Assembly (NCBI RefSeq): GCF_031458115.1
Contig: NZ_JAVDXV010000006.1
Location: forward strand, 382,276-414,275
DNA length: 32,000 nucleotides
Direction of reading: 5' to 3'
Source: Roseateles asaccharophilus
GTDB taxonomy: Bacteria; Pseudomonadota; Gammaproteobacteria; Burkholderiales; Burkholderiaceae_C
Shown: piece after piece, positions 1,067 to 20,611 of the stretch
Layout of the letters: the number at the start of each line of letters is the position of its first letter
Numbering within the stretch: position 1 is the first letter of the stretch
Translations under genes and position numbers: made by a program
The notes under the pieces: model-generated
Databases searched by the model: none
What the model was told of the DNA's origin: nothing
Seen by the model: only the letters and a program-made list of their open reading frames with translations

Positions 1067-2436
1067 AGCGCACCCTGCATTTGACCGCGCTGGCGCTGGC
1101 GCTGACCGGCTGCGCCAGCCTGACGCCCGGTGACGAAGTCACCGACGTCAGCCGTCTGACCCAGCCCCACACCGGCCAGACCCTGGCGCTGGAGCCACTG
1201 CCGGCGGACACGCTCGCGGCGCGGCTGCGCGAACCGCTGACCGCCGACGCCGCCGTGCAGCTGGCGCTGCAGAACAGCCGTGCGCTGCAGGCCCGTCTTG
1301 CCCGGCTGGGCGTAACGGCCGCCGAGGTCGATGCGGCCAGCCGCCTGCCCAACCCCGGCTTCAGCTTCAGCCGCCTCACGCGTGGCGACGAGGTGGAGCT
1401 GGAGCGTGGCTGGCACTTCAACCTGGCCCGGCTGCTGACGCTACCGCTGGTGCGCCAAGCCGAGCAGCGCCGCCTGCAGGCCGAGCAGCAGCAGGCCGCC
1501 GCCGACGTGCTGGCGCTGGCTGCGGACGCACGCCGCGCCTGGGTCAGCGCCGTGGCCGCCGAGGAGACGCTGACCTACCGCCGCCAGGTGCTGGAAGCCG
1601 CCGACGCCGGTGCCGAGTTGGCCCGGCGCATGCAGGCCGTCGGCAACTTCAACGCGCTGGCGCGCGCTCGTGAGCAGGGATTCGCGGCCGAAGCCCGGCT
1701 CGCGCTCGCCCGCGCCGAGAACCAGCGCCTGGCGACTCGCGAGCGCCTCGTTCGGCTGCTGGGGCTGTGGGGCGCCGACGCTGCGGCACTGCGGCTGCCC
1801 GAGCGCCTGCCTGCCTTGCCCGCCGCCGCGCGCGAGCAGCCCGACATCGAAACGCTGGCCCTGGCTCAGCGCCTGGATGTGCAGGCCGCGCGGCTGCGGC
1901 TGGAGCAAGCGGGGCGCCAGCTGGACGCAGGCCACATCAACCGCTTCGTGTCCATGCTGGAACTGGGCGTGGCGCACAACTCGTCCAACGAGGCGCCGGT
2001 GCAGCGCGGCTGGGAGGTCACGCTGGAGCTGCCGCTGTTCGGCCCCGGCCCCTTGCCACGCGCGCAGGCGTTGGCCCGCGAGGCGGCACACGACGCCGCC
2101 GACACCGCCATCCGTGCCCGCTCCGAGGTGCGCGAGGCCTACGGCCTGTACCGCGGCGCCTGGGACATCGCACGCCAGCACCGCGACGAACTGCTGCCGC
2201 TGGCCCAGCGCATCTCCGACGAACAGCTGCTGCGCTACAACGGCATGCTGATCGGCGTCTTCGAGCTGCTGGCCGACGCCCGCGCGCAAGTGGCCGCCGT
2301 GGCCGCCGCGCAGGACGCGCTGCGCGACTTCTGGCTGGCCCAGGCGGACCTGGACCAGGCCCTGCTGGGCCGCGCGTCCCCCACCCTGCCCCAGGCCGGT
2401 GCTGCTCCCGCCGCCGCTGCGGCGGCTCCCCACTGA
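1063..2436 (+). CDS. Outer-membrane efflux lipoprotein, TolC/CusC/OprM family
   Basis: Lipobox LALTGCAS, 457 aa, two-repeat alpha-helical Ala/Leu/Arg/Gln-rich pattern typical of OM factors. Confidence 0.85.
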   Translation: MKRTLHLTALALALTGCASLTPGDEVTDVSRLTQPHTGQTLALEPLPADTLAARLREPLTADAAVQLALQNSRALQARLARLGVTAAEVDAASRLPNPGFSFSRLTRGDEVELERGWHFNLARLLTLPLVRQAEQRRLQAEQQQAAADVLALAADARRAWVSAVAAEETLTYRRQVLEAADAGAELARRMQAVGNFNALARAREQGFAAEARLALARAENQRLATRERLVRLLGLWGADAAALRLPERLPALPAAAREQPDIETLALAQRLDVQAARLRLEQAGRQLDAGHINRFVSMLELGVAHNSSNEAPVQRGWEVTLELPLFGPGPLPRAQALAREAAHDAADTAIRARSEVREAYGLYRGAWDIARQHRDELLPLAQRISDEQLLRYNGMLIGVFELLADARAQVAAVAAAQDALRDFWLAQADLDQALLGRASPTLPQAGAAPAAAAAAPH

Positions 2437-2452
2437 ATTGCAAGGACACCTG

Positions 2453-3826
2453 ATGTTCAACCGACGTTCCCTGCTCGCGGGATCGACGCTGGCGTCGCTG
2501 GCCGCCGTCTCCAAGGCATCGCTCGCCGCGCTGCCCGAGCCGGTCATCCAGACCTCGCCCGACACGCAAGCCCCGCTCGTCCCGCCCACCGGGCGGCCCT
2601 ACAACCCCGTCGTCACGCTGAACGGCTGGACCTGCCCCTGGCGCATGAAGGACGGCGTCAAGGAGTTCCACCTCGTCGCCGAGCCGGTCGTGCGCGAGAT
2701 GGCACCCGGCTTCAAGGCCCACCTGTGGGGCTACAACGGTCAGAGCCCCGGCCCCACCATCGAGGTCGTCGAAGGCGACCGCGTGCGCCTCTACGTGACC
2801 AACCGTCTGCCTGAAGTCACCAGCATGCACTGGCACGGCCAACGCCTGCCCAACGGCATGGACGGCGTGTCCGGCCTGACGCAGCCGGCCGTCCCGCCCG
2901 GCAAGACCTGGGTCTACGAGTTCGTCGCGCGCCGCCCCGGCACCTTCATGTACCACCCGCATGCCGACGAGATGGTGCAGATGGCGATGGGCATGATGGG
3001 CTTGTGGATCACGCATCCCAAGGCGAAGCATCCGCACATCGCCGAGGTGGACCGCGACTACGCCTTCCTGCTCAATGCCTATGACATCGAGCCCGGCAGC
3101 GCGACGCCCAAGATCATGACCATGCTGGACTTCAATCTGTGGAGCTGGAACAGCCGCGTGTTCCCGGGCATCTCGCCGCTGGTGGCGCGCCAGGGCGACC
3201 GGGTACGCCTGCGAGTGGGCAACCTGACGATGACCAACCATCCCATCCACATCCACGGCCACGAGTTCGAGGTCACGGGCACGGATGGCGGCCCGGTGCC
3301 CAAGACAGCACGCTGGCCCGAGGTGACGGTCGACATCGCGGTCGGCCAGATGCGGCAGATGGAGTTCATCGCCGACGAGGAAGGCGACTGGGCCTTCCAC
3401 TGCCACAAGGCCCACCACACGATGAATGCGATGGGCCACGACGTGCCCACGATGATCGGCGTGGATCACAGCGGCCTGGCCGCCAAGATCCGCAAGCTGG
3501 TGCCGGACTACATGCTCATGGGCGAGCGCGGCATGCACGACATGACAGAGATGAGCATGCCGCTGCCCGACAACACCGCCCCCATGATGGCCGGAGAAGG
3601 CCCGTTCGGCCCGGTGGCGATGGGCGGCATGTTCAGCATGCTCAAAGTGAGGCGCGGCTTGAAGCGCGGCGACTACACCGACCCCGGCTGGTTCCAGCAT
3701 CCGCCCGGCACCGTCGCCCACGAGGTGGGCGATGCCCCGGCCGCCGCCAAGGCGGCGGCGCCCACGCCGCGCGCCTCGGATGTCGAGGTGCAGGTTCGCA
3801 AGCCGCAAGGCCATCACAACCATTGA
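2453..3826 (+). CDS. Multicopper oxidase (copper-resistance CopA/PcoA-like), Tat-exported
   Basis: ATG 2453 after AAGGA. Tat motif NRRSLL. Copper-ligand motifs HWHG, YHPH, HPIHIHGHEF, HCHKAHH, and a Met-rich C-terminal stretch. Confidence 0.9.
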   Translation: MFNRRSLLAGSTLASLAAVSKASLAALPEPVIQTSPDTQAPLVPPTGRPYNPVVTLNGWTCPWRMKDGVKEFHLVAEPVVREMAPGFKAHLWGYNGQSPGPTIEVVEGDRVRLYVTNRLPEVTSMHWHGQRLPNGMDGVSGLTQPAVPPGKTWVYEFVARRPGTFMYHPHADEMVQMAMGMMGLWITHPKAKHPHIAEVDRDYAFLLNAYDIEPGSATPKIMTMLDFNLWSWNSRVFPGISPLVARQGDRVRLRVGNLTMTNHPIHIHGHEFEVTGTDGGPVPKTARWPEVTVDIAVGQMRQMEFIADEEGDWAFHCHKAHHTMNAMGHDVPTMIGVDHSGLAAKIRKLVPDYMLMGERGMHDMTEMSMPLPDNTAPMMAGEGPFGPVAMGGMFSMLKVRRGLKRGDYTDPGWFQHPPGTVAHEVGDAPAAAKAAAPTPRASDVEVQVRKPQGHHNH

Positions 3827-7516: not shown

Positions 7517-7956
7517 AACACCCCGATCACTTGCACCTCGAAGCTGACCGGCTGGCCCGCGAGAGGGTGGTTGAAGTCGAACAGCACCGCCTCGTCCCCC
7601 AGCTCGCGCACGATGCCGGCATAGCCGCCCTGCCCGTCCGGACCGGGGAACTGCACGACATCGCCGACGTTGTAGACCTCGTCCGGGTCACCCAGCTGGC
7701 GCAGCAGCGTCAGCTTCACGCGCTGCAGCAGCTCGGGGTTGCGCTCGCCGAAGGCTTCGCCGGGCGCCAGCGTGAAACGCTCGTGCGCGCCCTCGGGCAG
7801 GCCGATCAGGCGCGCCTCGATGGCCGGCGACAGCTGGCCGGTGCCCAGGGACAGCGTGGCGGGCTTGTCGTCGAAGGTGTTGACGATGTCGGCACCGTCC
7901 GGGCCCGAGAGCCGGTAATGCAGAGTCAGGAAGGACCCGGCCTGGATGGGGTTCAT
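7513..7956 (-). CDS. fkpB: FKBP-type peptidyl-prolyl cis-trans isomerase
   Basis: 147 aa with LHYRLS...[18 protein letters not shown], typical of SlpA/FkpB. The position upstream of ispH matches the known fkpB-ispH arrangement. Confidence 0.8.
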
Positions 7957-7996
7957 GCGAGAGAAGAAGACGCTTGGCTAGACTGGCGCCGATTTT

Positions 7997-8441
7997 ATGT
8001 CGCTGACCCATCTGCCCCCCGACGCCCGTCCGCGCGAGAAACTGCTCGCCCGCGGCCCACAGGCGCTGGCGGAGCCGAGCTGCTGGCGTTGCTGCTGCGC
8101 ACGGGGCTCAAGGGCATGCCCGTGCTGCAGCTGGCGCAGAGCCTGCTGGACCGCTTCGACGGCTGGGCCGGGCTGCTGGCGGCCAGCGTGCAAGACCTCG
8201 GCAAGGTCAAGGGTCTGGGGCCTGCCAAGCGGGCGGAGATCGCCGCCGTGCTGGAGATTGCGCGGCGCTCGCTGAACCAGCAGCTGGCCGAGAAGCCGGC
8301 AATGAACGACAGCGACACGGTGAAGACTTATCTGCGCCTGCACCTGGGCGGGCTGGGACACGAGGTGTTCGCGGTGCTGTTCCTGGATTCGCAGCTCAAG
8401 CTCATCGCGATGGAGACGCTGTTCCAGGGCACGCTGGCATC
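7997..8441 (+). pseudogene. radC: radC (RadC/YicR JAB-domain family) 5' fragment, interrupted by the prophage and also frameshifted near 8068-8072
   Basis: Frame 2 gives MSLTHLPPDARPREKLLARGPQALA. Frame 1 continues ..AELLALLLRTGLKG...EVFAVLFLDSQLKLIAMETLFQGTLAS. The homology stops at 8441. Confidence 0.85.
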
Positions 8442-8464
8442 GATCAGCGTGCTGTATTTGCGGA
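8442..8464. repeat. Left terminal inverted repeat (attL, phage-derived P' arm)
   Basis: GATCAGCGTGCTGTATTTGCGGA is the reverse complement of 20680-20702 with one mismatch. It is preceded by TC (8440-8441). Confidence 0.8.
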
Positions 8465-8498
8465 AATCGTGGCCTCCGCTCCGTGCGGCGTTACGGAG

Positions 8499-8529
8499 AA
8501 TTATGTGAATCTACATAATTATGTGAATC
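8499..8529 (+). repeat. Tandem direct repeat AATTATGTGAATC x2 (18-bp register) in an AT-rich patch
   Basis: Exact 13-mers at 8499-8511 and 8517-8529. Confidence 0.8.
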
Positions 8530-8544
8530 AGCATAACGCCTCGT

Positions 8545-8783
8545 AATGACGCACTGAGCGGCCCGCGGCAGGCGACAGCCCGCAGGGCAGTGACTCGCGG
8601 CCGCAGGCCGCTCCCCGCCGGTACGGCAGTGACTCTGATTGCGGCCGCTCAGCCTTTGCCGGAGGCAATGACTCTCAGCCCGCCGCAGGCGGGCTGCCAG
8701 GAATCATCCAGTGACTCGCCCCGCCGGCCAGGCGCCGCCGGAGGCGTGACTCTCGAAAACGCCCTTCCCTGCAGGTCGTTTTC
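8545..8783 (+). repeat. Periodic array of (G/A)TGACTC cores, each followed by a GC-rich hairpin (putative ori/packaging/iteron region)
   Basis: Cores at 8590, 8629, 8668, 8711 and 8746 (spacings 39, 39, 43, 35), plus a degenerate ATGACGC at 8546. Hairpins include 8597-8611, 8676-8696 and 8755-8783. Confidence 0.75.
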
Positions 8784-8809
8784 CACCCCTTCGATATCAG
8801 CGCCCCGCG

Positions 8810-8820
8810 CGCTATACAGG
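8810..8820 (+). promoter_or_regulatory. CGCTATACAGG motif, copy 1 (candidate phage promoter element upstream of the g5p operon)
   Basis: Same motif at 12141, 14911 and 16691, each upstream of a plus-strand phage gene or operon. Confidence 0.35.
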
Positions 8821-8955
8821 TTCAAGGGGGCCTTGAAAACAACAACAAGGTTCTGGGGCGCACCTTCCCCACTGTGAAGGTCGCCGGCGCGGCTCCAGCT
8901 CGCCCCCGGCCTACGCCGCAACTTCAACAACAACCGCTATTCCAAGGGGGAAATC

Positions 8956-9195
8956 ATGCTCAAAGTCGTCGTCTATCAAGCCCGCACCGCTCGTTCTGAA
9001 AAGACCGGTAAGGACTACGTCAGTCAGACCGTCGAAATCGTTCAGTCGCCTGATCGGCCGAACGTCACGATGCGTCGCTTCGCTAAGTCTGAAGCTGAGG
9101 CGCTCAAGCCCGGGCAGTACACCTGCAAAGTGTCCTTCTTCAACAAAGGACTTGACCTGTCGCAGTCGTTCTACGACTTCCAGCCTGCGAAGTAA
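8956..9195 (+). CDS. ssDNA-binding protein, Ff g5p-like
   Basis: 79 aa with AAGGGGG RBS. It starts MLKV.. and ends ..PGQYTCKVSFFNKG...FQPAK, paralleling M13 g5p as I recall it (MIKV...PGLYTVHLSSFKVG...LVPAK). Confidence 0.7.
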   Translation: MLKVVVYQARTARSEKTGKDYVSQTVEIVQSPDRPNVTMRRFAKSEAEALKPGQYTCKVSFFNKGLDLSQSFYDFQPAK

Positions 9196-9197
9196 GC

Positions 9198-9455
9198 ATG
9201 CCCGCCGGCTCGCTCGAGAACGTGATCGTCTGCCGGCCTTCTGCCACGCCAGCCGCTCCCTGCGGCGCCGGCGAGGCCCCGACGGTCCTTCAGGCGTATG
9301 TTCTCGCGCCCTCCAGCTCTTCGTTCGTCGACGCCGCTGCAGGCCCCTACGACTACGCCACGGGCGCCGCCTATTGGTCCGCAGCCTTCGTCTTCACCGT
9401 GTCGTTGTACTTGTGCACCCGAGTCATCGGCACCATCGTCAACATGGTTCGCTAA
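9198..9455 (+). CDS. Small membrane protein, unknown function
   Basis: ATG lies 2 nt after the g5p-like stop. There is a single C-terminal hydrophobic helix (AAYWSAAFVFTVSLYLCTRVIGTIV). Confidence 0.5.
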   Translation: MPAGSLENVIVCRPSATPAAPCGAGEAPTVLQAYVLAPSSSSFVDAAAGPYDYATGAAYWSAAFVFTVSLYLCTRVIGTIVNMVR

Positions 9456-9524
9456 CGCCGCTGGACGCATCCAGCAACCGCCGCGGGTCGGACACCCGCA
9501 CGCTTCAATAAGGAGAACAACAAC

Positions 9525-9740
9525 ATGAAGCTGAACCGTACCGCCGCGCTCGTCGCTGCATCCGTACTGGCCGCACCGGCCGCCTTTGCTGCCGGCCCTA
9601 GCGCTGGTGACCTGTCCAACTTGACGCCCGACGGCGCAACGATCATGACCGCGATTGGCGCCGTCGCCCTCGTGCTCATCGGCATCAACCTGGGCCTCAA
9701 GGGCTTCCGCATCGTCCAGTCCCTGGTCGGCAAGCGCTGA
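9525..9740 (+). CDS. Major coat protein, g8p-like
   Basis: AAGGAG RBS. Signal peptide ends in AFA. The mature ~48 aa has an acidic N-terminus, a hydrophobic core (IMTAIGAVALVLIGINLGL) and a basic C-terminus (KGFRIVQSLVGKR). Confidence 0.8.
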   Translation: MKLNRTAALVAASVLAAPAAFAAGPSAGDLSNLTPDGATIMTAIGAVALVLIGINLGLKGFRIVQSLVGKR

Positions 9741-9748
9741 TAGCGCAG

Positions 9749-9776
9749 AAGGGGCGGCTAACCCCGCCCCTTTCTC
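9749..9776 (+). terminator. Rho-independent terminator/attenuator after the coat gene
   Basis: GGGGCGG-CTAACC-CCGCCCC followed by TTTCTC. This is the typical position after an inovirus g8. Confidence 0.65.
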
Positions 9777-9792
9777 ATCAAGGGGGCCTTTT

Positions 9793-9882
9793 ATGACGAT
9801 CAACGAGCTCTGGTACCTGACGCTGTTCGTGCACGGCGTCATCTGCGCTTGCGCAGTCATCGCTGGCTTGCGGGGTCGTTGA
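9793..9882 (+). CDS. 29-aa hydrophobic protein, g7p/g9p-like minor coat candidate
   Basis: AAGGGGG RBS 6 nt upstream of ATG 9793. MTINELWYLTLFVHGVICACAVIAGLRGR. The stop lies 1 nt before the g3p-like start. Confidence 0.5.
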   Translation: MTINELWYLTLFVHGVICACAVIAGLRGR

Positions 9883-9883
9883 C

Positions 9884-11563
9884 ATGCGCAAGCTGCTCAT
9901 CGCTCTTCTAGCGTTCTCTGTCATCTTCTTTGCTGTTGAGCGCGTACGCGCACAGGCACTACCCTCTTCACCGTTCTCGATCACCGCTAGCGACGCGCTC
10001 ACACTTGCCCGCCAGTCATGGGGAAGTGCATCGCTCATCGTCGGTGGCGGCACCGCCGTCGCAACTACGCTAGCTACCGCTGCCGGCGGCTTGTTCGGTA
10101 TCACGCCTATCGGCTGGGCGGGCATTGGTCTCGTTCTGCTCGCTACAGTGTTGATGACAAGCGACGCCTCTGGCAACTCAATCGCTGTTGTCGTCTCTAC
10201 GCAAGACATCGACGCGTCGCCCAATCCAGACCTTGCTTCGGGCGGTCAGACAACCTCTGGCGTCAGCAACTACTACGCGCTTGCGCCGGTAACGGGCGGC
10301 ATCGTCAAATATATCTCTAGCTCTAGTTGGTCGGCAGTCGGCTCAGATATATTGTCAGAGCCCGCACTACGACTGCGCGCGTATATCGCAACGATGTTCG
10401 CCGTGCCTAACAGTTGGCTGGTCAATAGCATCACCCAGGTCGGCAATACATATGTTGCCAGCAACGGCGGCGATACAACTAATATTGCGTTGGGTCGCTG
10501 CCCGTCTACCTCTTCAGGTTGTGTCGCACTTATATTTACTGCGCCCGTCGGGACTACCAAAGCTGAGTTTGAGTCAGTAATACCGGCCCTGCCGCCGTTC
10601 GCTGCCGCAGCTTGGACGATTCGGCCTAGTGGCGGAGCTCGCCCCTATTTCGCCATCGCAGTTCCTCTGGTTCTCGTCAACGAGATTATCAACTGCGACC
10701 CTTCGACGAGTTACTACGAATACTCTACAGCCAGCTGCATTCTGCTAAAGCCTACAACTACTGAGCCGCTTTCCAACGGTATGTGCCGAGTTAGCTGGTC
10801 TACGGATGGCTGCCCGGTATTCAACCGGCAAGACCCGGACTGCGCTTCAGCAGCCATCACTTTGTCTTGCGGTAGTGCGTCAGTCGCGCCATCGGTCACT
10901 GTTCTTGATCGAGCCACGGGTCAGACAGTTACTACCTCGCGCCCTGCTGTCGCTAGCCAAGGCCAACCGGGCTCTGTAACTGTCAAAGAGCGTACTCCCA
11001 ACGCAGCAAATGGCACTACTGTTGAGCGCTTGACTACAACGCAGTACCAAGCCGCCCCGGCGGGTCAGCCGAAGCCTGCGCCCGTCACCAACGGCGCTAA
11101 CCAGTCGACGTTGCCGGGCACTGGCGCTAACACCGGCAGCACGCCTGTCGCGCAGGTATCTGTGAGCAACTGGCCCTCGGTCGTAAACGTTCAAGGCACG
11201 GTCACGTGCACGAACTGCTCGACCGCTCAACAGCCCGTCAATATCAACGTGCCCGACCGCTTCAAGATTGACGGCGAAGTTCCCGCTGACGCGACCGGCC
11301 TGCCTACGCCGCCTGAGGCCGCCCCGCCAGCCGGCTTCATCACGAAGCTCAAAGAACGCCTTGCCGGCTTCGCAAACATCGAGCTGCCGCCGCACACAGC
11401 CACGTGCCCGCGCCTGGACATCAGCTGGCACGCATGGGGCGTCAATCTCGACTTGTCTAACAACACGATGTGCGCGTTTCTCGAAGAGCACCGCACGCTC
11501 TTCCAGGGCCTCATGCACTTCGCTTACATCGCCACCGCGATCATCATCGTCTTGGGAGCCTGA
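9884..11563 (+). CDS. Adsorption/minor coat protein, g3p-like
   Basis: 559 aa with a signal peptide, paired Cys residues, Ser/Thr/Pro/Gly-rich linkers and a C-terminal membrane anchor (FAYIATAIIIVLGA). Position matches g3. Confidence 0.7.
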   Translation: MRKLLIALLAFSVIFFAVERVRAQALPSSPFSITASDALTLARQSWGSASLIVGGGTAVATTLATAAGGLFGITPIGWAGIGLVLLATVLMTSDASGNSIAVVVSTQDIDASPNPDLASGGQTTSGVSNYYALAPVTGGIVKYISSSSWSAVGSDILSEPALRLRAYIATMFAVPNSWLVNSITQVGNTYVASNGGDTTNIALGRCPSTSSGCVALIFTAPVGTTKAEFESVIPALPPFAAAAWTIRPSGGARPYFAIAVPLVLVNEIINCDPSTSYYEYSTASCILLKPTTTEPLSNGMCRVSWSTDGCPVFNRQDPDCASAAITLSCGSASVAPSVTVLDRATGQTVTTSRPAVASQGQPGSVTVKERTPNAANGTTVERLTTTQYQAAPAGQPKPAPVTNGANQSTLPGTGANTGSTPVAQVSVSNWPSVVNVQGTVTCTNCSTAQQPVNINVPDRFKIDGEVPADATGLPTPPEAAPPAGFITKLKERLAGFANIELPPHTATCPRLDISWHAWGVNLDLSNNTMCAFLEEHRTLFQGLMHFAYIATAIIIVLGA

Positions 11564-11566
11564 CGC

Positions 11567-11863
11567 ATGTACGCAGCACTTCTCGCCGTCCTGGGCCGCG
11601 TTTTTGCGTGGGTCATGGGCGCCGGCACGCTCAAATGGGCCGTTGGAGCATTCTTGCTCTTCGGCGTCACGATCCTCGTCGACATCCTGCTCGACCTGCT
11701 TCCCACTTGGTTCGACCCAGCCCAGCTCGTCGGCGCGACCTCCGTCTTCACGCCCTCGATCTGGTACTTCCTGGACTACTTCGCTTTCCAGACCGGGCTC
11801 TCGATGATGTTTGCCGCGTACGCAGTGCGTTTCTTGATTCGTCGTCTCCCGGTCATCGGCTAA
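11567..11863 (+). CDS. Integral membrane minor coat protein, g6p-like
   Basis: 98 aa, multi-helix hydrophobic, immediately after the g3p-like gene. Confidence 0.6.
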   Translation: MYAALLAVLGRVFAWVMGAGTLKWAVGAFLLFGVTILVDILLDLLPTWFDPAQLVGATSVFTPSIWYFLDYFAFQTGLSMMFAAYAVRFLIRRLPVIG

Positions 11864-11897
11864 GAAGCAGTGATCCCCTCTGGGGACGCCTAAACGG

Positions 11898-12140
11898 CTA
11901 ATCCGGCTTCGTCAGCTCAGCGCTGTGTACTCGCACCGCGTGCGAACCGCTCACTTGACACGTTAGTTTGTCGCCGACTCGCAGATCGCGCCAGTCCACG
12001 CCTTCCACACTCTTCCCTATGCTGAGCTGCAGCCCGCCTTCTGACTCAGCTCTTGCTATCTCGAGCTCTGCGACGACTGCCGTCACTGTCGCCGTGACAG
12101 TCTGCTGTTCGTAGTTCATGTGCTGATGTTGCCTGCGCAT
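11898..12140 (-). CDS. Doubtful reverse-strand 80-aa ORF in the g6-g1 gap
   Basis: It is the only ORF in a 303-bp plus-strand gap. There is no convincing RBS at either ATG (12140 or 12119), and it uses rare codons. Confidence 0.3.
   Translation of the reverse strand: MRRQHQHMNYEQQTVTATVTAVVAELEIARAESEGGLQLSIGKSVEGVDWRDLRVGDKLTCQVSGSHAVRVHSAELTKPD
12082..12098. promoter_or_regulatory. Inverted repeat GTCAC-N7-GTGAC
   Basis: GTCACTGTCGCCGTGAC, about 45 bp upstream of CGCTATACGG motif copy 2. Confidence 0.35.
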
Positions 12141-12150
12141 CGCTATACGG
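12141..12150 (+). promoter_or_regulatory. CGCTATACGG motif, copy 2 (upstream of zot/g1p)
   Basis: CGCTATACGGTCAAAAGGGGG parallels CGCTATACAGGTTCAAGGGGG at 8810-8830. Confidence 0.35.
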
Positions 12151-12166
12151 TCAAAAGGGGGACCGC

Positions 12167-13261
12167 ATGGCTATTCATGCAATCACAGGCGTTATGGGCT
12201 CTGGCAAGAGCTACGAAGCCGTTTCAGAGAAGATCGTTCCAGCGCTTCGAGACGAGGCCGCTCGTCGCGTAGTCACGAACATCGAAGGCTTGTCTGTGCC
12301 AGCTATCGCTGCGTACATCAACAAGCCTGAGAGCGAGGTCGAAGCACGCATCGTTCGAATCAGCTACGACCGCGTCAGCGAACCTGGCTTCTGGTACGAC
12401 CCTGAGCACGGCTCGGGGTCCGAAACCGTTGTCCAGCCCGGCGACCTGGTCGTACTCGACGAGGTCTGGCGCTATTTCAACCGTGGCGACAAACTGCCCG
12501 AGGATGCAATGCGCTTCTTCCGCATGCACCGACACTACGTGAGCGAGCAATCGGGTCTCACCTGCGACGTTGTGCTCATCAACCAGAGCTTTCGCGGTAT
12601 ACACCAGGACATTCGCGACGTAGTCGAGTTGCAGTTCCAATGCCGCAAGCTCAAAGCCCTCGGACGGCCTCAGAACTACCAAGTGCTCTTGCTGGAGGGC
12701 GGCGAGCGCAAGCCCTCGCACGACTACATTCGCACTTACTCGAAGAGGGTCTTCCCGCTATACAGCAGCTACGCCGGCGGCCAGGGCAAAGAGGCTGTCG
12801 ACAAGCGGCAGAGCGTCTTCAACACGCCCTTCTTCAAGGTCGTTCTGCCGCTGTTCGCGGTCCTCATGGTCTTCGGCGTCTACAAGACGTACAGCTACTT
12901 CGCCGACATGGGCAAGCCGGCTGACGGCGCAGCGCTCGTAACCCCATCAGCTGCTGCGTCATCGCCTTCGGGCCTGCCGACGCCGCCGTCAGCTGGTGCG
13001 GCTCCTGCGCCTGCGCAGTCAGCTTTCAGCACTGCGTCTGGCTCCGCGGCCGATTGGCGCCTCGTCGCACGCTACAGCGTCGGTGGCTTGCCTGTTGTCG
13101 TCATGGTCAACGCCAGTGGCCAGTACCGAACTGTGACGAGCGGCAGCTACACGCAGGGCGCGTCCACTGACGTCTCAGTACAGATTCCGCTCGATCCGTC
13201 TGATCGCGCTACGCCTTGGTCTGGCCCTGCTCCTGCATCGACCAAGGGGGCCGCGCGATGA
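12167..13261 (+). CDS. Zot/g1p-family assembly ATPase
   Basis: N-terminal Walker A GVMGSGKS, DE Walker B (VVLDEVW), a central TM helix (VVLPLFAVLMVFGVY) and a periplasmic C-terminal part. Confidence 0.85.
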   Translation: MAIHAITGVMGSGKSYEAVSEKIVPALRDEAARRVVTNIEGLSVPAIAAYINKPESEVEARIVRISYDRVSEPGFWYDPEHGSGSETVVQPGDLVVLDEVWRYFNRGDKLPEDAMRFFRMHRHYVSEQSGLTCDVVLINQSFRGIHQDIRDVVELQFQCRKLKALGRPQNYQVLLLEGGERKPSHDYIRTYSKRVFPLYSSYAGGQGKEAVDKRQSVFNTPFFKVVLPLFAVLMVFGVYKTYSYFADMGKPADGAALVTPSAAASSPSGLPTPPSAGAAPAPAQSAFSTASGSAADWRLVARYSVGGLPVVVMVNASGQYRTVTSGSYTQGASTDVSVQIPLDPSDRATPWSGPAPASTKGAAR

Positions 13262-14610
13262 ACCGCAAGATCGCCCTCATCGGCGGCTTCCTCGTTGTGA
13301 AGAAGATCGTCGTCATCGCGGTGCTGGCGATGCTCGTCGGGTCGAGTGAAGCCCAGCCGGCGCTCAAGCTCCCGCCGCCTCCGGCGCCGGTGCCTGCCTC
13401 CGGCTTTCAGACGTTCGGCACTGGTCTACCCCTTGCCGAGTTCTTGAAGATCGCTCTAGGCGAGCTCTCTGGCCGCCCCTACGTTCTCGCTCCGGAGGTG
13501 GCTGCTTCGTCTCAGCTTGTTGCTGCAGACCTGACTAAGTCGAAACTCAAAGACCCGCTGCCGCTCGTCCGGGCCGTCATTGAGCCGCTTGGCCTCGAAA
13601 TCCGAGACCTCGGCGGCGTTCTGCTCGTCGACAAGCGCCGCACTGAGGCATCGAAGAAGAGTCCAGGTGACACGTTCACCTACCGCCCTCGGCATCGCTC
13701 TGTCAACAGCCTTTCGACGTACTTCAATATGTTCCCCGAGCTCGCTTTCAGCTACTCGGGCGGCCTCGCTGTCCGCGCCCAGACCGTCTCCAGCTCCGAC
13801 TCCACCGAGCCCGGCAAGGCTCTGCAGCCGACCATGAGTAGCGGCGCCACCACTTTTAGCGCGCAGGACAAAGACCCGAGCTTTCTCGTCGTCGCCGGCG
13901 ACGCCGCAGAGATTAGTCGTTTCAAGACCTTGATCGTTGAGTTGGATGTGCCTGTTCCCCAGGTGCTCGTCAAGGCCTATGTGTTTGAAGTCCGGACTAC
14001 AGACGCTCGCGATGGCGGTGTGAAGCTCGTCGCTGATCTGCTTGGCGGCCGCGTCGGCTTCAACCTCGGCGGCGCGTCCAGTTCTACCACGCCGGATGCT
14101 CTACGACTCACTCTTCCCAACGTCAGTCTTGCTGTGTCTGCGCTGGCTGCGGACAGCAGAGTGCGCCTCGTCAGCTCGCCGGTTCTCAGAGTTGATGACA
14201 GCACTACCGCTAGCGCTACTGTGGGCACCTCTACGCCCACTCTGGGTGCTATCGTCAGTCAGAACGGCTCGACCCAGCAGAGCGTGTCATATCAAGAGGC
14301 CGGCGTTTTGCTGTCTGTTAGCGCGCGAGTCCTTGAAGCGAGCATCCGTCTTACCATCTCGCAAGAGCTGTCTAGCTTCGTCAAAACGGACACCGGGCTC
14401 TCGAACACTCCGACTAAGCTCCGCCGCGCTTTCAAATCTGACGTTGTCGCCCGTGACGGCGAAGCTCTTCTGCTCGGGGGCCTGACAGAAGCTCAAACGT
14501 CTGATGCCAAGCAAACCAGCTTCTTCGGCTTCGGCTCAGCCTCTAAGTCGACTTCAAGCTCTGAAGTCGTCGTGCTGTTGACTGCTACTCGTCTCGATCA
14601 GCAGCAGTGA
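13258..14610 (+). CDS. Secretin, g4p-like
   Basis: ATG 13258 overlaps the zot stop as ATGA. Signal/TM N-terminus and a C-terminal secretin-type domain (VLVKAYVFEV...RLVSSPVLRV...YQEAGVLLSV...ALLLGGL). Confidence 0.85.
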   Translation: MNRKIALIGGFLVVKKIVVIAVLAMLVGSSEAQPALKLPPPPAPVPASGFQTFGTGLPLAEFLKIALGELSGRPYVLAPEVAASSQLVAADLTKSKLKDPLPLVRAVIEPLGLEIRDLGGVLLVDKRRTEASKKSPGDTFTYRPRHRSVNSLSTYFNMFPELAFSYSGGLAVRAQTVSSSDSTEPGKALQPTMSSGATTFSAQDKDPSFLVVAGDAAEISRFKTLIVELDVPVPQVLVKAYVFEVRTTDARDGGVKLVADLLGGRVGFNLGGASSSTTPDALRLTLPNVSLAVSALAADSRVRLVSSPVLRVDDSTTASATVGTSTPTLGAIVSQNGSTQQSVSYQEAGVLLSVSARVLEASIRLTISQELSSFVKTDTGLSNTPTKLRRAFKSDVVARDGEALLLGGLTEAQTSDAKQTSFFGFGSASKSTSSSEVVVLLTATRLDQQQ

Positions 14611-14866
14611 GTGAGTCGATCCACATCTGCCATTCCTCATAAAACACACACTCCGTGCCGTCTTCGAGAAGCAGCAAAGCTCGCCTACTTCGCGCGAATT
14701 GAACGCATTTGTCTCTAACTTCTTCACCCATATCAGAGAGCACTACGTACCGAGTGCCACATGGCGTTGCGTGTACCGGTGTGAATCTCTTCTTCGACGC
14801 CACACAGCCTCCAAGCGTAAATATATGTAACAAGCCCGGGTCAGCCAAAAACGCCCACTGAATCAA
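14585..14866 (-). CDS. Orphan hypothetical protein (AT-rich cargo)
   Basis: 93-aa ORF convergent with and overlapping the secretin 3' end by 26 nt. No recognisable motif, and the start is uncertain. Confidence 0.4.
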   Translation of the reverse strand: MIQWAFLADPGLLHIFTLGGCVASKKRFTPVHATPCGTRYVVLSDMGEEVRDKCVQFARSRRALLLLEDGTECVFYEEWQMWIDSLTAADRDE

Positions 14867-14889
14867 GGCAGTTCTTCTAGCGCCTCCAA

Positions 14890-14905
14890 GTCACGATTTC
14901 GTGAC
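14890..14905. promoter_or_regulatory. Palindrome GTCACGA-TT-TCGTGAC (operator candidate)
   Basis: 7-bp perfect arms, 5 bp upstream of CGCTATACAGG copy 3, in a divergent intergenic region. Confidence 0.45.
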
Positions 14906-14910
14906 CTCGA

Positions 14911-14921
14911 CGCTATACAGG
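14911..14921 (+). promoter_or_regulatory. CGCTATACAGG motif, copy 3
   Basis: Identical 11-mer to 8810-8820. It lies upstream of the ORF starting at 14972. Confidence 0.35.
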
Positions 14922-14971
14922 TATGTACGGGCTGCGCGTTGCAGCCCCACCCAACCCTGAAAGGCGCTTCC

Positions 14972-15415
14972 ATGAACTTCGAATACTTTGACGACGGTTG
15001 CCATCACAATCTCGGCGACATCAATACAAATGGATATGTTTTCGTCGCATCTCAAGATGAAAACATTTCGTCTAGTGAGCTTGAATCTGCTGCATATGAA
15101 GCAGACGCGCGTCGCTTCTGCGCTGATTTGAAGACAATTCGTCGCATCAGCATGCTACCTGTGACTTTTCTTACGGGGCACCATGTCGTAGCTTGCATTC
15201 GAGTTACTACAGCGTCTCGGACGTATTCGCTCTACACCAACGATTTTGGTGACAGCCTGCTTGATGAGTCGCACTACACATTGTTCTTCAAACGCAATTT
15301 CAGTCTCTTTCGCTACGATCTTCAGACTCCTCAAGGCCGGGCCGCTGCTCGTGAATATGTTCGTCGCAAGTTGAAGTTTTTGGCACAGCACGGCAAGCCT
15401 TTTGACGGTTATTGA
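14972..15415 (+). CDS. Orphan hypothetical protein (AT-rich cargo)
   Basis: ATG 14972 within ORF 14939..15415 (the track start is TTG). 147 aa (MNFEYFDDGCHHNLGD...) with no recognisable motif. Confidence 0.5.
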   Translation: MNFEYFDDGCHHNLGDINTNGYVFVASQDENISSSELESAAYEADARRFCADLKTIRRISMLPVTFLTGHHVVACIRVTTASRTYSLYTNDFGDSLLDESHYTLFFKRNFSLFRYDLQTPQGRAAAREYVRRKLKFLAQHGKPFDGY

Positions 15416-15528
15416 GTACGCGCGGCGGTCGGCGGACAGCGAGCGAGGAGCGGACGGACACACATGCCTCGCCCGCACCGCAGCGAGGGTCCGTCGCCCG
15501 CCGCGACTCTTCAAAAACTCCAGTCCGG

Positions 15529-15711
15529 CTAGGCCGATTTCGCGCCCGTCAGTTTTGTAATTGCGTTCCTATACTGAATTGGAAGCGTGGTCACACTAGG
15601 GTACACATCGGCGGGCACTGGGGAGTGCCCGTCGTCCTTTCCGAATCTTTCTTCCACCTCGGCCGGCGTCAATCTGACGAACGGCCTCTTTTTCGCGTCA
15701 ATTTCGGTCAT
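15529..15711 (-). CDS. Small hypothetical protein, last gene of the reverse-strand operon
   Basis: 60 aa. Its ATG overlaps the upstream stop as ATGA (15708-15711). KKRPFVRLTPAEVEERF could be a ribbon-helix-helix, which is speculative. Confidence 0.45.
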   Translation of the reverse strand: MTEIDAKKRPFVRLTPAEVEERFGKDDGHSPVPADVYPSVTTLPIQYRNAITKLTGAKSA

Positions 15712-16088
15712 TCTTGATCTTCTTGATGCTCGCCCGCGCCCCGGCGCGGGCCCTGGTCCGGGTTTGCTTTCTTCGCTATCACTAGGTCGCCGACGACGTC
15801 AAACTCGATCTGCTGTCCTGGCCGCAGGTCCATAGCTCTACGTATCGCTGCGGGTATCGTTATTAAGTTCCGCCTGTTCATGGTCGAGTGCCATTGCATA
15901 CTCTGCTTCGCTCGGTCGACTATCGTCTCGACGCGAGGAACAAGCTCAGACTTCAGCGCTTCTGCGATCCAGCGCACTTCGTGCTCAGACGGGTCGTGAA
16001 TTCGAATCTGCGCCACGATCTGCTGCACGAGCTCTGACAGCACTCTGTTGCGCTCAAACTGAATCATTTCTTCGTCACTCGGGATCAT
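15708..16088 (-). CDS. Protein with a C-terminal AbrB/SpoVT/MazE-type DNA-binding domain (candidate phage regulator or antitoxin)
   Basis: NLITIPAAIRRAMDLRPGQQIEFDVVGDLVIAKK fits the looped-hinge-helix pattern. The likely start is ATG 16088 (MIPSDEE..). The track ORF extends to 16130. Confidence 0.55.
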   Translation of the reverse strand: MIPSDEEMIQFERNRVLSELVQQIVAQIRIHDPSEHEVRWIAEALKSELVPRVETIVDRAKQSMQWHSTMNRRNLITIPAAIRRAMDLRPGQQIEFDVVGDLVIAKKANPDQGPRRGAGEHQEDQE

Positions 16089-16434
16089 TTTTGATCCCAA
16101 AAGCTCGGTACGCGGCTTCTCTAGACACAATGTGCTTGTTCTCGGGCGCTGACGCTGCTGCGATCACGCGCAGCGCACCTTCCGCAGTCTTGAACCGCTC
16201 TTCTGTCGTGCGGATGAGCCATCGCACGTCTGCTCTCGTGAGCGCCCAGCACTTCTCGTTCGACTGCCGCATCAGCGGCCGCGCCAGGTATGCGACTTTG
16301 AATCCAGCACTGTGCGCCCGCCTGCGTGTTGCCACGCTTACAAGCTGATCCGCGAGGTCGTTGAGCTTCTCGAAGCGCAAGAACATCTGCCCTTCGTTGT
16401 CGAAGTCCGTCATATCCGCACAGTCTTGGTGCAT
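16075..16434 (-). CDS. Hypothetical protein, first gene of the reverse-strand regulatory operon
   Basis: 119-aa ORF divergent from rep, overlapping the next gene by 14 nt. An alternative start is at 16413. No motif recognised. Confidence 0.5.
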   Translation of the reverse strand: MHQDCADMTDFDNEGQMFLRFEKLNDLADQLVSVATRRRAHSAGFKVAYLARPLMRQSNEKCWALTRADVRWLIRTTEERFKTAEGALRVIAAASAPENKHIVSREAAYRAFGIKNDPE

Positions 16435-16636
16435 TTCAATAGCTTGCCGCTATCGAAAAATCGACGGTTTCGCGCCTCCCGGCTGCATCGAGTTTTTGCA
16501 ATCCTCACTACGTCGGACAGCAGCCTGAGGCTGCATGACTCTACTCTAACGTCGGACGGCATGGGGAGCCTATCTTCTCTCGCTTCAAAAACTCGATGCT
16601 AGACCGTCGCTCCTGAGTCGGCAAAAAGCGCATTTC

Positions 16637-16648
16637 TTGCTATAGCAA
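16637..16648. promoter_or_regulatory. Perfect 12-bp palindrome TTGCTATAGCAA
   Basis: Read directly, in the rep/regulator divergent intergenic region. Confidence 0.4.
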
Positions 16649-16667
16649 AAACCAATCGACTTTCGGG

Positions 16668-16680
16668 GTCAAGACTTGAC
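16668..16680. promoter_or_regulatory. Palindrome GTCAAG-A-CTTGAC overlapping a TTGACA hexamer
   Basis: 6-bp perfect arms, 10 bp upstream of CTATACGGG motif copy 4 (16691-16699). Confidence 0.4.
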
Positions 16681-16690
16681 ATCGCCGGAC

Positions 16691-16699
16691 CTATACGGG
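16691..16699 (+). promoter_or_regulatory. CTATACGGG motif, copy 4 (upstream of rep)
   Basis: Shares CTATAC(A/G)GG with copies at 8812, 12143 and 14913. Confidence 0.35.
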
Positions 16700-16792
16700 G
16701 TGTACCCCCACAACGGCCCCGCGAGGTAGATCACAGCGCACTGCGCAAATCGAGGACATGAGTCGGATAGGGCCATCAACCCAGCCCTCCCC

Positions 16793-18736: not shown

Positions 18737-18929
18737 CGCCTCGCAAGTTCGAATCCGCCTGATCCGCTCAGGCCCACACACCCCGCACCCGCGGGGCGCA
18801 GCCACTGGCGAGCCTCTGAAGTGTGATGGGATTCGAACCAACCCTCAGGTCTGAGCTTCGCCGATCCGCGCGGCGCTTCGCGCGGGCGACGCCTCGAAAC
18901 CGGCTTAACCGGGCCGGCAAGGCGCCTCA

Positions 18930-18953
18930 GGCGGGCCCCGTAGGGGTCCCGCC
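18930..18953. terminator. GC-rich hairpin between convergent rep and recombinase genes
   Basis: GGCGGGCCCC-GTA-GGGG(T)CCCGCC. There is no clear U-tract, so terminator function is uncertain. Confidence 0.35.
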
Positions 18954-18991
18954 CTTGGATAGATATGCGTAACTTTCTAACCCTGAATTTA

Positions 18992-20611
18992 CTAGGACTT
19001 TTTGAGGCTCGGCAGTTCAAGCTCACCTTTCAGGCTTGCAGCCCAGGCCGGCTGCGCGTCGCCCTGCGCTTTCACCCCGAGCGGTATCGTCAGCAGCTGC
19101 TGCGAGTTCTTGAACTGAACTGCGACTAGGTCATACGCCCAGAGCCAAATCACGTCCACGGCTCGTCGTAGTCTGTTGTTGCAGTCCGCGCGTAGACGCA
19201 TCGCATCGTCTGACGTCTCGAACAGCACTGCGATGACTTGCTCTGCGTAAGCCGTGTCAAATAGCGAGTTTGGGTTGACTGCCAGCTGCGCTTTGAGCTC
19301 TTCGATGACGTTCTCAAGCTGCTCACGTTCAGCGGTCAACCTGGCAATGTCTTGAAGTACCTCGGGCACGGCGCCCACGGCTCTGCTGACTGCTACGACG
19401 TTTGCTATTGCGGTCTTCACGTCAGCGAGCTTTGACTCAGCTACCGCAACTTCTTTCACCGCTGCGTCTTTGTCGTACCCCAGGCCCAGGTGCGCTCCCG
19501 CGTACGCACATATGTCTAAGATGACCTGCGCTTCGGTCTTCAGCGCTGACATCGTCTTGCACTTCGTAATCCCGGCCGCTTTTGAAGAGCAGATCAGCTG
19601 TGCCCTGCTCCAGCCGCGGTACTCGACTTTTCGCTGTATCGACGCGCCACAGTGCCCGCACCTGAGCAGTCCACTGAATACGTGAAAGTAGTTGCCATCG
19701 CGTTTTGGCGGCGCTGTTTTGCGCGTCTGGACTGACGATCTTGCGAGGTGCCAGAGGTCGTCACTTATCACCCGAGGGTAGTAATCCTTGATCGGTGGTC
19801 CTACTGCTACAGGCACGTCACTCTCAAGCTCTTTCAACACGTTCTTGCCTTTGAGCTTGTGCTGAGCCTCTCCCAAAACTGCCCTGTTCTTCAGGATGAT
19901 TTGCGGCATCCTCGAATGCCAGTGTTCTGTTGTCATCGAGGTCACGCGTGTAGGTACCGGCCAGCCTTCTGCGTTCGCTAGCTTCGCAATCGTAGGCCCG
20001 CCCATTCCGCGGCCAGCCGCTTCGAACACTTTTCTCACGGACTCAGCCAGCTCTTCGACAACTTCCCAGTCGCCTCCCGCTTGACTTCTTCTCAGCCACC
20101 CCGGAGCTGAGCCGAAGACCTTCTTGCCTTCTTCTCGTTTTCGCTTGAACGTCTCGCTTACACGCCCGCCCTTGCGAAAGCTCTCTTCGTGCGCTTGCGC
20201 GAACGCAAGCATCATGCCGATCAGAGCGGCGATGTTGTTCAGCGACTTCTTCGTGTAGATGTGCCCGTCGAGCAACGTGACGATGTTCACGTCTTTGCGC
20301 AGGATCGACTTGACCAGCGTGTCTGCATCGTCAATCTCTTCGCGACTGAGCCGGTCGAAGTGTTCAATCAGCAGATAACTGCCCTTCGGCACCCTGCCCT
20401 CTTCCACCTGCTCCAAGAACGCCGCGAGGTTGCCTTTCGTTCTGTGCTTGCCGGTGAAAGCACTCAAGCCGAGGTCCGCGACGCTCTCATCGAGCTTCAT
20501 GCCGTGCTGCGCGCACCACCGCTCTGCTGCATCGCCCTGTCGTTCTTCTGAGCGCCCTTTTGATTGTCTTGCCGACGAAAATCGAACGTAGCTGATGACC
20601 CGAGGCTTCAT
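18992..20611 (-). CDS. Large serine recombinase (integrase)
   Basis: Resolvase-type N-terminus ([12 protein letters not shown]...[11 protein letters not shown]), a recombinase domain, a Cys4 zinc-ribbon (CGHCG...C..K..C) and a coiled-coil C-terminus. ATG 20611 is preferred; the track start TTG 20623 is possible. Confidence 0.9.

Follow-up and report, generated by a model that had tools for sequence, protein, structure and literature searches.

A conserved array of TGACTC repeats and its single-copy partner element in a clade of Burkholderiales inoviruses: a candidate origin-type signal

The main non-coding region of an inovirus (filamentous phage) prophage of Roseateles asaccharophilus contains an array of five, possibly six, TGACTC repeats that all lie on the same strand, recur at the equivalent place in related phages, and have a single full-length relative, a 21-nt element designated here as E, several kilobases away in the same prophage. 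The prophage, of ~12.3 kb, spans approximately positions 8436-20698 of a 32,000-nt stretch of high-GC chromosomal DNA (contig NZ_JAVDXV010000006.1, positions 382,276 to 414,275; hereafter, the window). The array is located ~150 bp inward of the prophage left end, in a 520-bp non-coding gap (8436-8955) preceding a g5-like gene. The repeats had been noticed in a first-pass annotation made from the sequence alone, which offered Rep iterons, a multi-hairpin packaging signal or priming sites as possible roles. The explanation toward which we lean, tentatively, is that the array constitutes an origin-type cis element that is read on the viral strand.

The five cores reported in that annotation were recovered as RTGACTC instances at 8590-8596, 8629-8635, 8668-8674, 8711-8717 and 8746-8752, all on the + strand and with spacings of 39, 39, 43 and 35 bp. 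Core 3 reads ATGACTC, within the context GGCAATGACTC, and the remaining four read GTGACTC; cores 1 and 2 share the context GGCAGTGACTC, and core 4 lies within CATCCAGTGACTC. The degenerate core ATGACGC described at the head of the array is also present on the + strand (8546-8552), as a possible sixth copy of uncertain status that has no counterpart in the relatives. The total number of RTGACTC instances in the window is not unusual (7, versus 6.8 expected from shuffled sequences), the remaining two being located at 9421 on the - strand and at 16535 on the + strand. Their clustering is: five same-strand instances fall within 163 bp, versus a maximum of two within 170 bp across 300 first-order Markov simulations of the window. 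Tandem Repeats Finder did not call the array, because the spacers differ between units. No match was obtained in blastn searches of the array region and of E against 50,697 phage records (INPHARED), and Rfam returned only noise-level hits for the array and for the E region. The hairpin sequences of the array are not repeated in the rest of the window, with which only scattered 11-mers are held in common, and host REP-like repeats were discarded as an explanation on that basis.

In order to establish whether these cores are conserved, relatives of the prophage were identified as homologues of its Zot protein (45-79% identity), nearly all of them on short metagenomic contigs, of which twelve were fetched. 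Single-protein Zot locus scans of genome and viral contig collections returned no relatives, which were found only via homologous-protein search; DNA anchor-pattern scans of genomes and metagenomes added one true relative (L023) and 33 chance matches, which were kept as negative controls. Five to six TGACT cores were identified in five further independent genomes, always on the + strand and ~200-370 bp upstream of a g5-like gene: L006 (2314-2391), L007/L008 (2196-2323), L011/L023 (2772-2862), L047/L048 (4495-4585) and L051 (6637-6734). The first-pass annotation had expected related phages to keep the core if the array mattered, and these five do. The cluster is present in every genome in which the g5-like gene owns an upstream non-coding region. 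It is missing anywhere on the contigs of four relatives (L009, L046, L049 and L136), in which a gene encoding a Phage_GPA nickase fused to a UvrD helicase (812-922 amino acids [aa]; L009 203-2794, L046 3135-5798, L136 7304-10072, L049 3-2441) runs directly into g5; none of these four carries E either. TGACT clusters were also absent from 80 distant inovirus loci (818 kb), and only 0-1 TGACT was found upstream of the 33 negative-control matches to the downstream anchor pattern. The arrays of L006 and L051 match almost perfectly, apart from one extra unit in L051, against a background of ~56% identity in the other intergenic sequence. The array is therefore clade-specific, conserved and under constraint.

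These comparisons bear directly on the possibility that the region instead encodes a protein, in the open reading frame (ORF) 8590-8877 (95 aa), or holds a chance cluster in GC-rich DNA. The open frame does exist, and GC-rich genomes are full of spurious palindromes and ORFs, yet the ORF has no family match, and no conserved ORF, frame, start codon or peptide is found at this place in the relatives. The cores, moreover, fall in different frames, their spacings not all being multiples of three, and a clustering never reached in simulations is conserved independently in five other genomes. This account is hence scarcely credible, and the assignment of the array to the main intergenic region, in a gap without a conserved ORF, stands. 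Several further readings of the cores were discarded. They cannot be -35 promoter boxes, as there is no -10 element at the right distance, and matches to a core-pair pattern in IMG/VR, which fall in coding sequence or unrelated tandem repeats (L001 and L003 coding; L002 a primase-helicase replicon), were treated as chance; the match in an iteron-pair scan was a coding DDDSG repeat. In the 6.1-kb IMG/VR contig L002, which encodes a DUF5906 primase-helicase, 16-nt tandem repeats (GGCAATGACTCCAAC) at 1500-1600 have the 11-mer GGCAATGACTC in common with unit 3 of the array; the likeness, to iterons of another replicon type, is probably fortuitous.

Across genomes, TGACT is invariant in all 32 cores, and the next base is C in 26/32, the sequence being GACTA or GACTG in the remaining 6/32. 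CcrM-type GANTC sites were rejected as the conserved feature, since TGACT is more conserved than GACTC. Most cores, as well as E and the P2-type nick sites discussed below, do contain GANTC, and in L007 an N6/N4 DNA methyltransferase gene (1160-2101) adjoins the array. Core spacing varies from 8 to 44 bp. The arrays of L006, L011, L047 and L051 open with three or four simple tandem iterons of 14-17 bp, (A/T)TGACTCCG(A/G)GG, with no hairpins in between, and the same four arrays have in common a terminal module composed of ATGACT(A/C), a variable GC hairpin, CAT.C.GTG(A/T)CTC and a final YTGACTC. Within the window, core 3 is the positional counterpart of the ATGACT(A/C) unit that precedes the hairpin, core 4 is the unit whose position is kept best (all relatives have CAT.C.GTG[A/T]CTC there) and core 5 matches the terminal YTGACTC. 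Hairpins accompany every unit only in the window and in its closest relative, L007; in relatives with long intergenic regions (L006, L047) or without an array (L009), hairpin clusters are sited elsewhere. The periodic, structured array initially described is thus real as regards its cores, and its ~39-bp period is specific to one lineage, four of the six arrays being built of 14-17-bp units; the statement that each core is followed by a hairpin does not generalize, the first three or four cores of those same arrays having none between them. Since neither spacing nor hairpins are conserved, the array is read here as two superimposed layers, conserved iterons and lineage-specific viral-strand hairpins.

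The second layer is highly regular in the window. All four hairpins listed in the first-pass annotation were found in place on the + strand: GCGGCC-GCA-GGCCGC (8597-8611), directly 3' of core 1; a weak CTGA-TTGCGGCCGC-TCAG with an N10 loop (8635-8652), overlapping the final base of core 2; CAGCCCGCC-GCA-GGCGGGCTG (8676-8696), 2 nt 3' of core 3; and GAAAACG-N15-CGTTTTC (8755-8783), which follows the last core and resembles in hairpin and loop a structure in L006 (CCCT..CCTGCAGG). In addition, a perfect + strand mini-hairpin precedes cores 1, 2, 3 and 5, namely GCCC-GCA-GGGC (8578-8588) and GCCG-GTA-CGGC (8617-8627), each 1 nt 5' of its core, and TTGCC-GGA-GGCAA (8656-8668) and CGCC-GGA-GGCG (8736-8746), which abut theirs; core 4 has only a weak GGA-ATCA-TCC stem. 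The regular unit is therefore a 4-5-bp GC mini-hairpin with a GNA triloop, 0-1 nt, (G/A)TGACTC, 0-2 nt and a larger hairpin, and the GGC(A) that was seen to precede most cores is explained by the GNA mini-hairpin. Among perfect triloop hairpins with stems of 4 bp or more, 6/6 in the segment 8540-8800 carry a GNA loop when read on the + strand, and so do 3/3 in the L007 array. In the other 31 kb of the window, GNA loops account for 14/211 triloop hairpins (6.6%) and the complementary TNC loops for 15/211. Triloops of the c(GNA)g type form exceptionally stable DNA mini-hairpins, so that the bias points to a + strand selected to fold when present as single-stranded DNA (ssDNA); by analogy with all known inoviruses, the + strand would be the viral strand. 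The loops themselves vary by unit and by phage (GCA, GTA, GGA, GGC, ACC, CGCCA), the invariant sequence lying between the stems, and the larger hairpins begin 1-4 nt past a core in four genomes. Covariation, which had been put forward as a check on the structures, bears out a conserved hairpin only in part: the hairpin after the core 3 counterpart, of a different sequence in each relative, is strong in three genomes (the window, L011 and L047) and moderate in L007, but not significant in L006 and L051.

Stable + strand GNA hairpins clustered within 240 nt are also what a packaging (morphogenetic) signal would look like, that is, a viral-strand multi-hairpin segment kept free of ssDNA-binding protein in which TGACTC is recognised by assembly proteins. 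Orientation specificity is expected of packaging signals, and the array is tied strictly to the morphogenesis module, just upstream of g5, whichever replication module is present. Nonetheless, relatives with the same assembly proteins have no TGACT cluster, as illustrated by L049 (Zot 58% and g5 72% identical) and similarly by L009, L046 and L136; hairpins are scarce or lacking in four arrays; and a packaging role does not account for the occurrence of E in contigs resembling tailed phages, described next. We therefore consider packaging very unlikely as the primary role of the array.

The first-pass annotation had pointed to a further ATGACTC preceded by a hairpin near rep (16520-16541). This copy is real and belongs to E, ATGACTCTACTCTAACGTCGG, which is found once, at 16535-16555 on the + strand, 237 nt upstream of rep. 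It directly follows the hairpin GCAGCC-TGA-GGCTGC (16520-16534) and is flanked by direct repeats ACGTCGGAC of the ..GTCGG.. type (16510-16518 and 16549-16557). Listing all + strand TGACT instances in six genomes yielded the consensus ATGACTCT(T/A)CTCTAACGTCGG for E, which occurs once on the + strand in every array-bearing genome and also in L005 (L005 5856, L006 146, L007 9029, L011 9456, L047 1253, L051 4430). An additional, inverted copy is present in L006 and in L051, at the edge of the replication cassette defined below, and E is missing from the genomes with Rep-UvrD fusions and from the 80 distant inovirus loci. Judged by sequence, the array cores, especially GGCA(G/A)TGACTC(T), resemble the 5' half of E (GGCTGCATGACTCT), of which they would be partial copies. 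Of the genomes with a GPA Rep (the window, L005, L007 and L047), three out of four have E ~240-270 nt upstream of rep. Exact 21-nt matches to E, with flanking GTCGG repeats, were also identified in two IMG/VR contigs, L137 (3217-3237, - strand) and L138 (8677-8697), which harbor tailed-phage or host-like genes (baseplate-hub-like, ResIII helicase, SRAP) and neither inovirus genes nor a TGACT array. All copies of E, including the one in the window (16535-16549), can be read as a four-codon mini-ORF, ATG ACN YTN CTC TAA (MTLL*); the copies vary mostly in the third positions of codons, and in some of them GAGG lies upstream.

The position and hairpin context of E invite comparison with the replication origin of the P2 family, since the prophage Rep (16793-18736, + strand, HUH motif HWHVWLHY) is an HUH initiator of the Phage_GPA family (PF05840; P2 A / phiX174 A) and not of the Ff gpII family. 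In the P2 record (NC_001895) the A-protein nick is annotated at 29892, within GCCTCGG^AGTCCTGTCAATAAC, the counterpart of which in the tailed Burkholderia phage phiE12-2 is CCCTTGGACTCGTGTCAATAAC. The alignment of E with the P2/phiE12-2 nick region comprises 12/17 positions (GACTC, T, TC, TAAC) with one 2-nt gap, and the array cores match the P2-type site only in (T)GACTC. The exact P2-type site is present in the inovirus L094 and not in the array-bearing clade; in L094, CCTTGGACTCGTGTCAATAACTGTAC (3451-3496) lies inside the GPA rep gene (1826-3634) on the viral-sense strand, is identical to the phiE12-2 origin region and is homologous to the P2 nick site. No stretch with excess synonymous-site conservation was detected inside rep among the window, L007, L047 and L005, so that the origin of this Rep clade must be located elsewhere than within rep. 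An 11-nt match between the repeat unit of L051 and L006 and the reverse-complemented P2 nick site had suggested minus-strand nicking, which was rejected because phiE12-2 and L094 show a variable central base of GA(G/C)TC and a site on the sense strand. The Pf phages were likewise dropped as a model, the Pf4 initiator being of the Rep_trans type and not GPA (PMC4863604).

An adequate explanation has to account for the single orientation of the cores, their being partial copies of E, the GNA-flanked heptamers in two genomes and the tandem iterons in four, as well as for the independence of the array from the initiator family and its absence where the Rep-UvrD gene abuts g5. Under the origin-type reading, the clade-wide layer of five or six direct viral-strand TGACT(C) repeats, partial copies of E, would supply recognition sites for the phage DNA-replication machinery. 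E would be the complete site and, most probably, the nick region or plus-strand origin, while the array, situated where the replication/lysogeny module meets the morphogenesis operon, would offer auxiliary sites for binding or termination. The GC-rich GNA-triloop hairpins that in the window and L007 lie on both sides of each core form the second layer; because they flank the cores, the heptamers would be left unpaired between stable stems, either in viral ssDNA or in an extruded supercoiled replicative form, and the hairpins may thus keep the sites exposed. Every inovirus needs a complementary-strand origin and a packaging hairpin, and the hairpins probably also provide one or both of these. 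As to what reads the sites, recognition, binding or termination by a rolling-circle initiator and reading by host enzymes for complementary-strand priming are, each taken singly, unlikely and about equally so.

Several observations weigh against this proposal. The predicted ssDNA folds of both strands, a check that had been called for, are better than those of shuffled sequences (z = -3.1 for +, z = -4.5 for -), so the + strand is not favored over the - strand and fold energy alone does not identify the strand that folds. Four of the six arrays are hairpin-free between their first cores, and exposure between stems therefore cannot be essential. The array is 4.3 kb or 7.9 kb away from E, and several functional nick or termination sites would be expected to yield sub-genomic circles. 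The likeness between E and the P2 nick region was sought post hoc and is matched by 1.75% of random 23-mers (p ~0.02), which makes it a lead and not proof, and the GA(C/G)TC core is near-palindromic and hence matches in both orientations. GPA Rep is present in the window, L005, L007 and L047, and absent from L051, L006, L011, L137 and L138. L051, at 8.4 kb, appears to be a complete circle, as its ends overlap within g3, and it has both the array and E with no GPA Rep. Together with L006 and L011, it carries instead a replication module in which four 22-bp iterons accompany an RHH protein and a protein of 376-379 aa that matches TrfA only below threshold, and no HUH or Rep_trans initiator was detectable in these three despite a full morphogenesis module. 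This module was located at 4626-6167 in L051, 316-1802 in L006 and 1-641 in L011; its larger protein is faintly TrfA-like (phrog_26900), its RHH protein is 57 aa long and its iterons read GTGGAGATGAAGCC. Nor could a GPA Rep be detected in the available sequence of L137 and L138, the latter followed to its contig end. With the array and E accompanying two unrelated replication modules, and E occurring in tailed-phage-like contigs, a Rep-specific origin is hard to sustain. The designation of the array as Rep iterons is accordingly not borne out, given its presence with E in complete or near-complete genomes without Phage_GPA Rep. The AbrB-domain protein, named in the first-pass annotation as a possible binder, fares no better, since it is not kept across the phages that carry the array.

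Independence from the replication-protein family would suit a host regulator, and an unlikely reading, though one to be taken seriously, is that the array is an operator in double-stranded DNA (dsDNA), on which a host or small phage regulator binds TGACTC(CGRGG) iterons and E to control the promoters of the g5-to-g4 operon and of rep, the hairpins being unrelated ssDNA signals interleaved by chance. Hairpin-free 14-17-bp tandem iterons, as found in four genomes, are typical of protein-binding repeats. The array lies 58-123 bp upstream of a (G/A)GCTATAC block, represented in the window by GCGCTATAC (8809-8817, + strand), a promoter-like candidate kept in four aligned relatives and present as AGCTATAC in L051, and E lies ~150-250 bp upstream of CTATAC before rep. 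In the window, moreover, a leftward promoter is predicted (8527 to 8500) on the side of the array that faces away from g5, and the array is lacking in precisely those genomes (L009, L046, L049, L136) in which g5 comes after rep and has no separate intergenic region. However, the range of 58 to 123 bp itself means that the distance to the putative promoter varies, core spacings of 8-44 bp upset a fixed helical phasing, and dsDNA binding does not explain why 32/32 cores share one orientation or why the GNA loops are strand-biased. No regulator is common to the array-bearing genomes, the AbrB/MazE-like, RHH and 67-aa proteins each being lineage-specific, and E is not upstream of any promoter in the genomes with the 376-aa protein. 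The promoter role of GCGCTATAC is only putative, a sigma-70 scan having found no + strand promoter. More broadly, the protein comparison of the relatives identified no phage protein that is common to array-bearing genomes and absent from array-less ones.

The distribution of genes around the two elements suggests a further set of possibilities. In all the genomes that have them, E and the array split the circular genome into an array-to-E arc that holds only the conserved morphogenesis genes (g5 to g4) and an E-to-array arc that holds a variable replication/lysogeny cassette, consisting of Rep and a serine recombinase, Rep and a methyltransferase, or the 376-aa/RHH/iteron module. Such an arrangement could reflect recombination at module junctions, with E and the array as paired targets for cassette exchange through the initiator or a recombinase, and the repeats as both its scars and its substrates. 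The extra inverted copy of E at the cassette edge in L006 and L051 fits this view, as do the differences in core number and spacing between close relatives (L051 having one unit more than L006) and the failure of Zot similarity to separate array-bearing from array-less genomes, which implies module shuffling. Against it, the synteny pattern, drawn from about ten sampled genomes, comes with no enzyme that can be assigned to the exchange, and an array so well preserved between L006 and L051 would seem to be still in function and not a scar, making recombination highly improbable as the principal explanation. A variant that joins replication to exchange appears decidedly unlikely: E and the array would form a matched pair of sites bounding an exchangeable replication/lysogeny cassette in this Burkholderiales inovirus clade, with a nicking initiator starting at one and ending at the other. 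If so, sub-genomic ssDNA circles and cassette swaps between phages could result, and L051, L006 and L011, which combine the virion module, E and the array with a plasmid-type iteron replicon, would use an initiator supplied in trans or an unrecognised ssDNA route.

The prophage is inserted in radC. The ORF upstream of it (7531-8508) encodes the UPF0758 N-domain, but of the RadC JAB domain it covers no more than positions 2-50; the remainder (positions 43-121) picks up at 20595-20933. From the radC reading frame, attL would span 8429-8463, with a shared GCACGCT (8429-8435) followed by a phage arm containing CAGCGTGCTGTATTTGCGG (8445-8463), and attR would span 20681-20698, with the phage arm CCGCAAATACAGCACGCT, after which the C-terminal part of radC restarts. 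Joining the prophage ends produces an attP with a perfect 19-bp inverted repeat and an 8-bp spacer (CCGCAAATACAGCACGCTG-GCATCGAT-CAGCGTGCTGTATTTGCGG). The 7-bp identity with radC (GCACGCT) sits off centre, in the left arm of attP, which is unusual for a large serine recombinase; the crossover point is putative. Rightward of the array, the morphogenesis operon begins with the g5-like gene (8956-9195, + strand, 79 aa), so labelled from its position and conservation only, its product having no family match and 52-72% identical homologues at the equivalent position in the relatives. It is followed by genes for an 85-aa protein, the major coat protein, g3-like and g6-like proteins, Zot/pI and the secretin (pIV), of which the major coat, g6-like, Zot/pI and secretin/pIV proteins, in addition to Rep, were identified by family search. 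The Zot-like protein is 100% identical to one named from Roseateles asaccharophilus. An AbrB/MazE-like protein and a large serine recombinase (18992-20623) are encoded leftward.

The flanks of the array contain additional short features. Between attL and the array, two 18-bp tandem repeats, AATTATGTGAATC(T/A)(A/G)CAT (8499-8534), overlap the predicted - strand promoter, a good sigma-70-like match (TTCACA-16-CATAAT, 10/12). In the circular form this promoter would face across attP toward the recombinase gene, so that integration would part the two. On the g5 side, alignment with the relatives revealed conserved + strand leader blocks upstream of the g5-like gene, GGCTCCAG (8891-8898) and ACGCCG (8913-8918). 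In almost every relative, a (GCG)CTATAC block is found ahead of the transcription unit of rep and of that of g5 (window 8809-8817 and 16690-16697; L047 1500 and 4640; L046 3100 and 6811); it was not called by the sigma-70 scan and may be a shared promoter or operator element. In L047, the hairpin-rich non-coding region of 1.3 kb downstream of rep contains three 38-bp tandem repeats, GCTGATACGGATGATACTTTAGCTCTAAAGTTGGCCAA (3608-3725), every one of which includes the palindrome ACTTTA-GCTC-TAAAGT.

To our knowledge, outside Ff and a small number of phages of Vibrio and Pseudomonas, the cis signals of filamentous phages (plus origin, minus origin and packaging) are essentially unmapped. With its five to six TGACTC repeats, the array forms, together with the 21-nt single-copy E, a conserved and testable pair of sites in an uncharacterised clade of betaproteobacterial inoviruses from the environment. 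Around the cores, the hairpins carry a signature of selection for ssDNA mini-hairpins with GNA triloops, and the pair travels with the morphogenesis module while replication modules are swapped around it. If found, the factor that reads the array and E would reveal either the use of P2-type HUH initiators by inoviruses or a host function on which they rely. The two elements could also mark the origin region of this clade in genome annotation and serve in phagemid-type vectors for Burkholderiales.

Among known systems, the closest parallel in position is the intergenic region of Ff (M13/f1/fd), which holds the packaging hairpin, the minus-strand origin hairpins and a plus-strand origin with gpII-binding repeats. 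The array also lies in the main non-coding region of an inovirus, combining viral-strand hairpins with short repeats in a strand-specific manner, and the region would be expected to hold equivalent signals. It differs from Ff in showing no sequence likeness, in being located upstream of g5 and not between gIV and gII, in having a Phage_GPA HUH initiator in place of gpII, and in pairing a heptamer with a distant full-length E, for which there is no Ff counterpart. In the P2 family, a hairpin is followed by (C/T)(C/T)GG^A(G/C)TC(C/G)TGTCAATAAC at a single site inside gene A. The prophage Rep belongs to the same Pfam family, and E follows a hairpin and lies on the viral-sense strand, as does the P2-type origin of L094; unlike the P2 site, E is outside rep, an array exists in addition to one site, and both elements also occur without a detectable GPA Rep. 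The pMV158 bind/nic region and the origins of geminiviruses and circoviruses similarly combine short direct repeats with variable GC-rich stem-loops and an HUH initiator encoded by the element. In those origins, however, the hairpin loop carries the conserved nick sequence and has the iterons beside it, whereas here the loops vary, the conserved sequence is between the stems, and the full-length site is kilobases away from the array.

Single-strand origins of the G4 and ssoA type resemble the array in their stable hairpins on the strand that becomes single-stranded, with a short motif in a variable structured context. They are read by host enzymes, which would explain both the initiator independence of the array and the presence of E in other phage types, but the hairpin-free 14-17-nt tandem iterons of four genomes are atypical of priming sites. 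No likeness to the G4, phiX174 n' or ssoA (RSB, CS-6) motifs was recognised, and Rfam returned no match above noise. Plasmid centromeres such as sopC and parC consist of near-identical units with the same palindrome, located beside partition genes, whereas in the array spacers and palindromes differ in every unit, and family searches of the prophage proteins found no partition genes. Arrays of the same style were observed in non-coding regions of other inoviruses: GAGGTTATTTGGTCGC occurs six times at 54-59 bp with variable spacers in L087 (989-1300) and L098 (448-730), and TTCTGACGTTGGAA six times at 27-29 bp in L124 (10589-10740), just after the secretin gene. These arrays resemble that of the window in repeating a core about six times in one orientation with differing spacers, and differ from it in core sequence and position; the architecture therefore recurs as a style, which does not bear on what it does. 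No description of such a core-plus-variable-spacer architecture was found in the literature searched, nor any usable account of inovirus iterons or of the P2 cleavage site. Measured against the defining features that were checked, the array comes without an initiator of the gpII type and has neither a nick sequence conserved in a loop nor a P2-type sequence of its own, and no origin lies inside rep; the array most likely belongs, with the signals of the Ff intergenic region, to the category of origin-region elements expected at this place in an inovirus genome.

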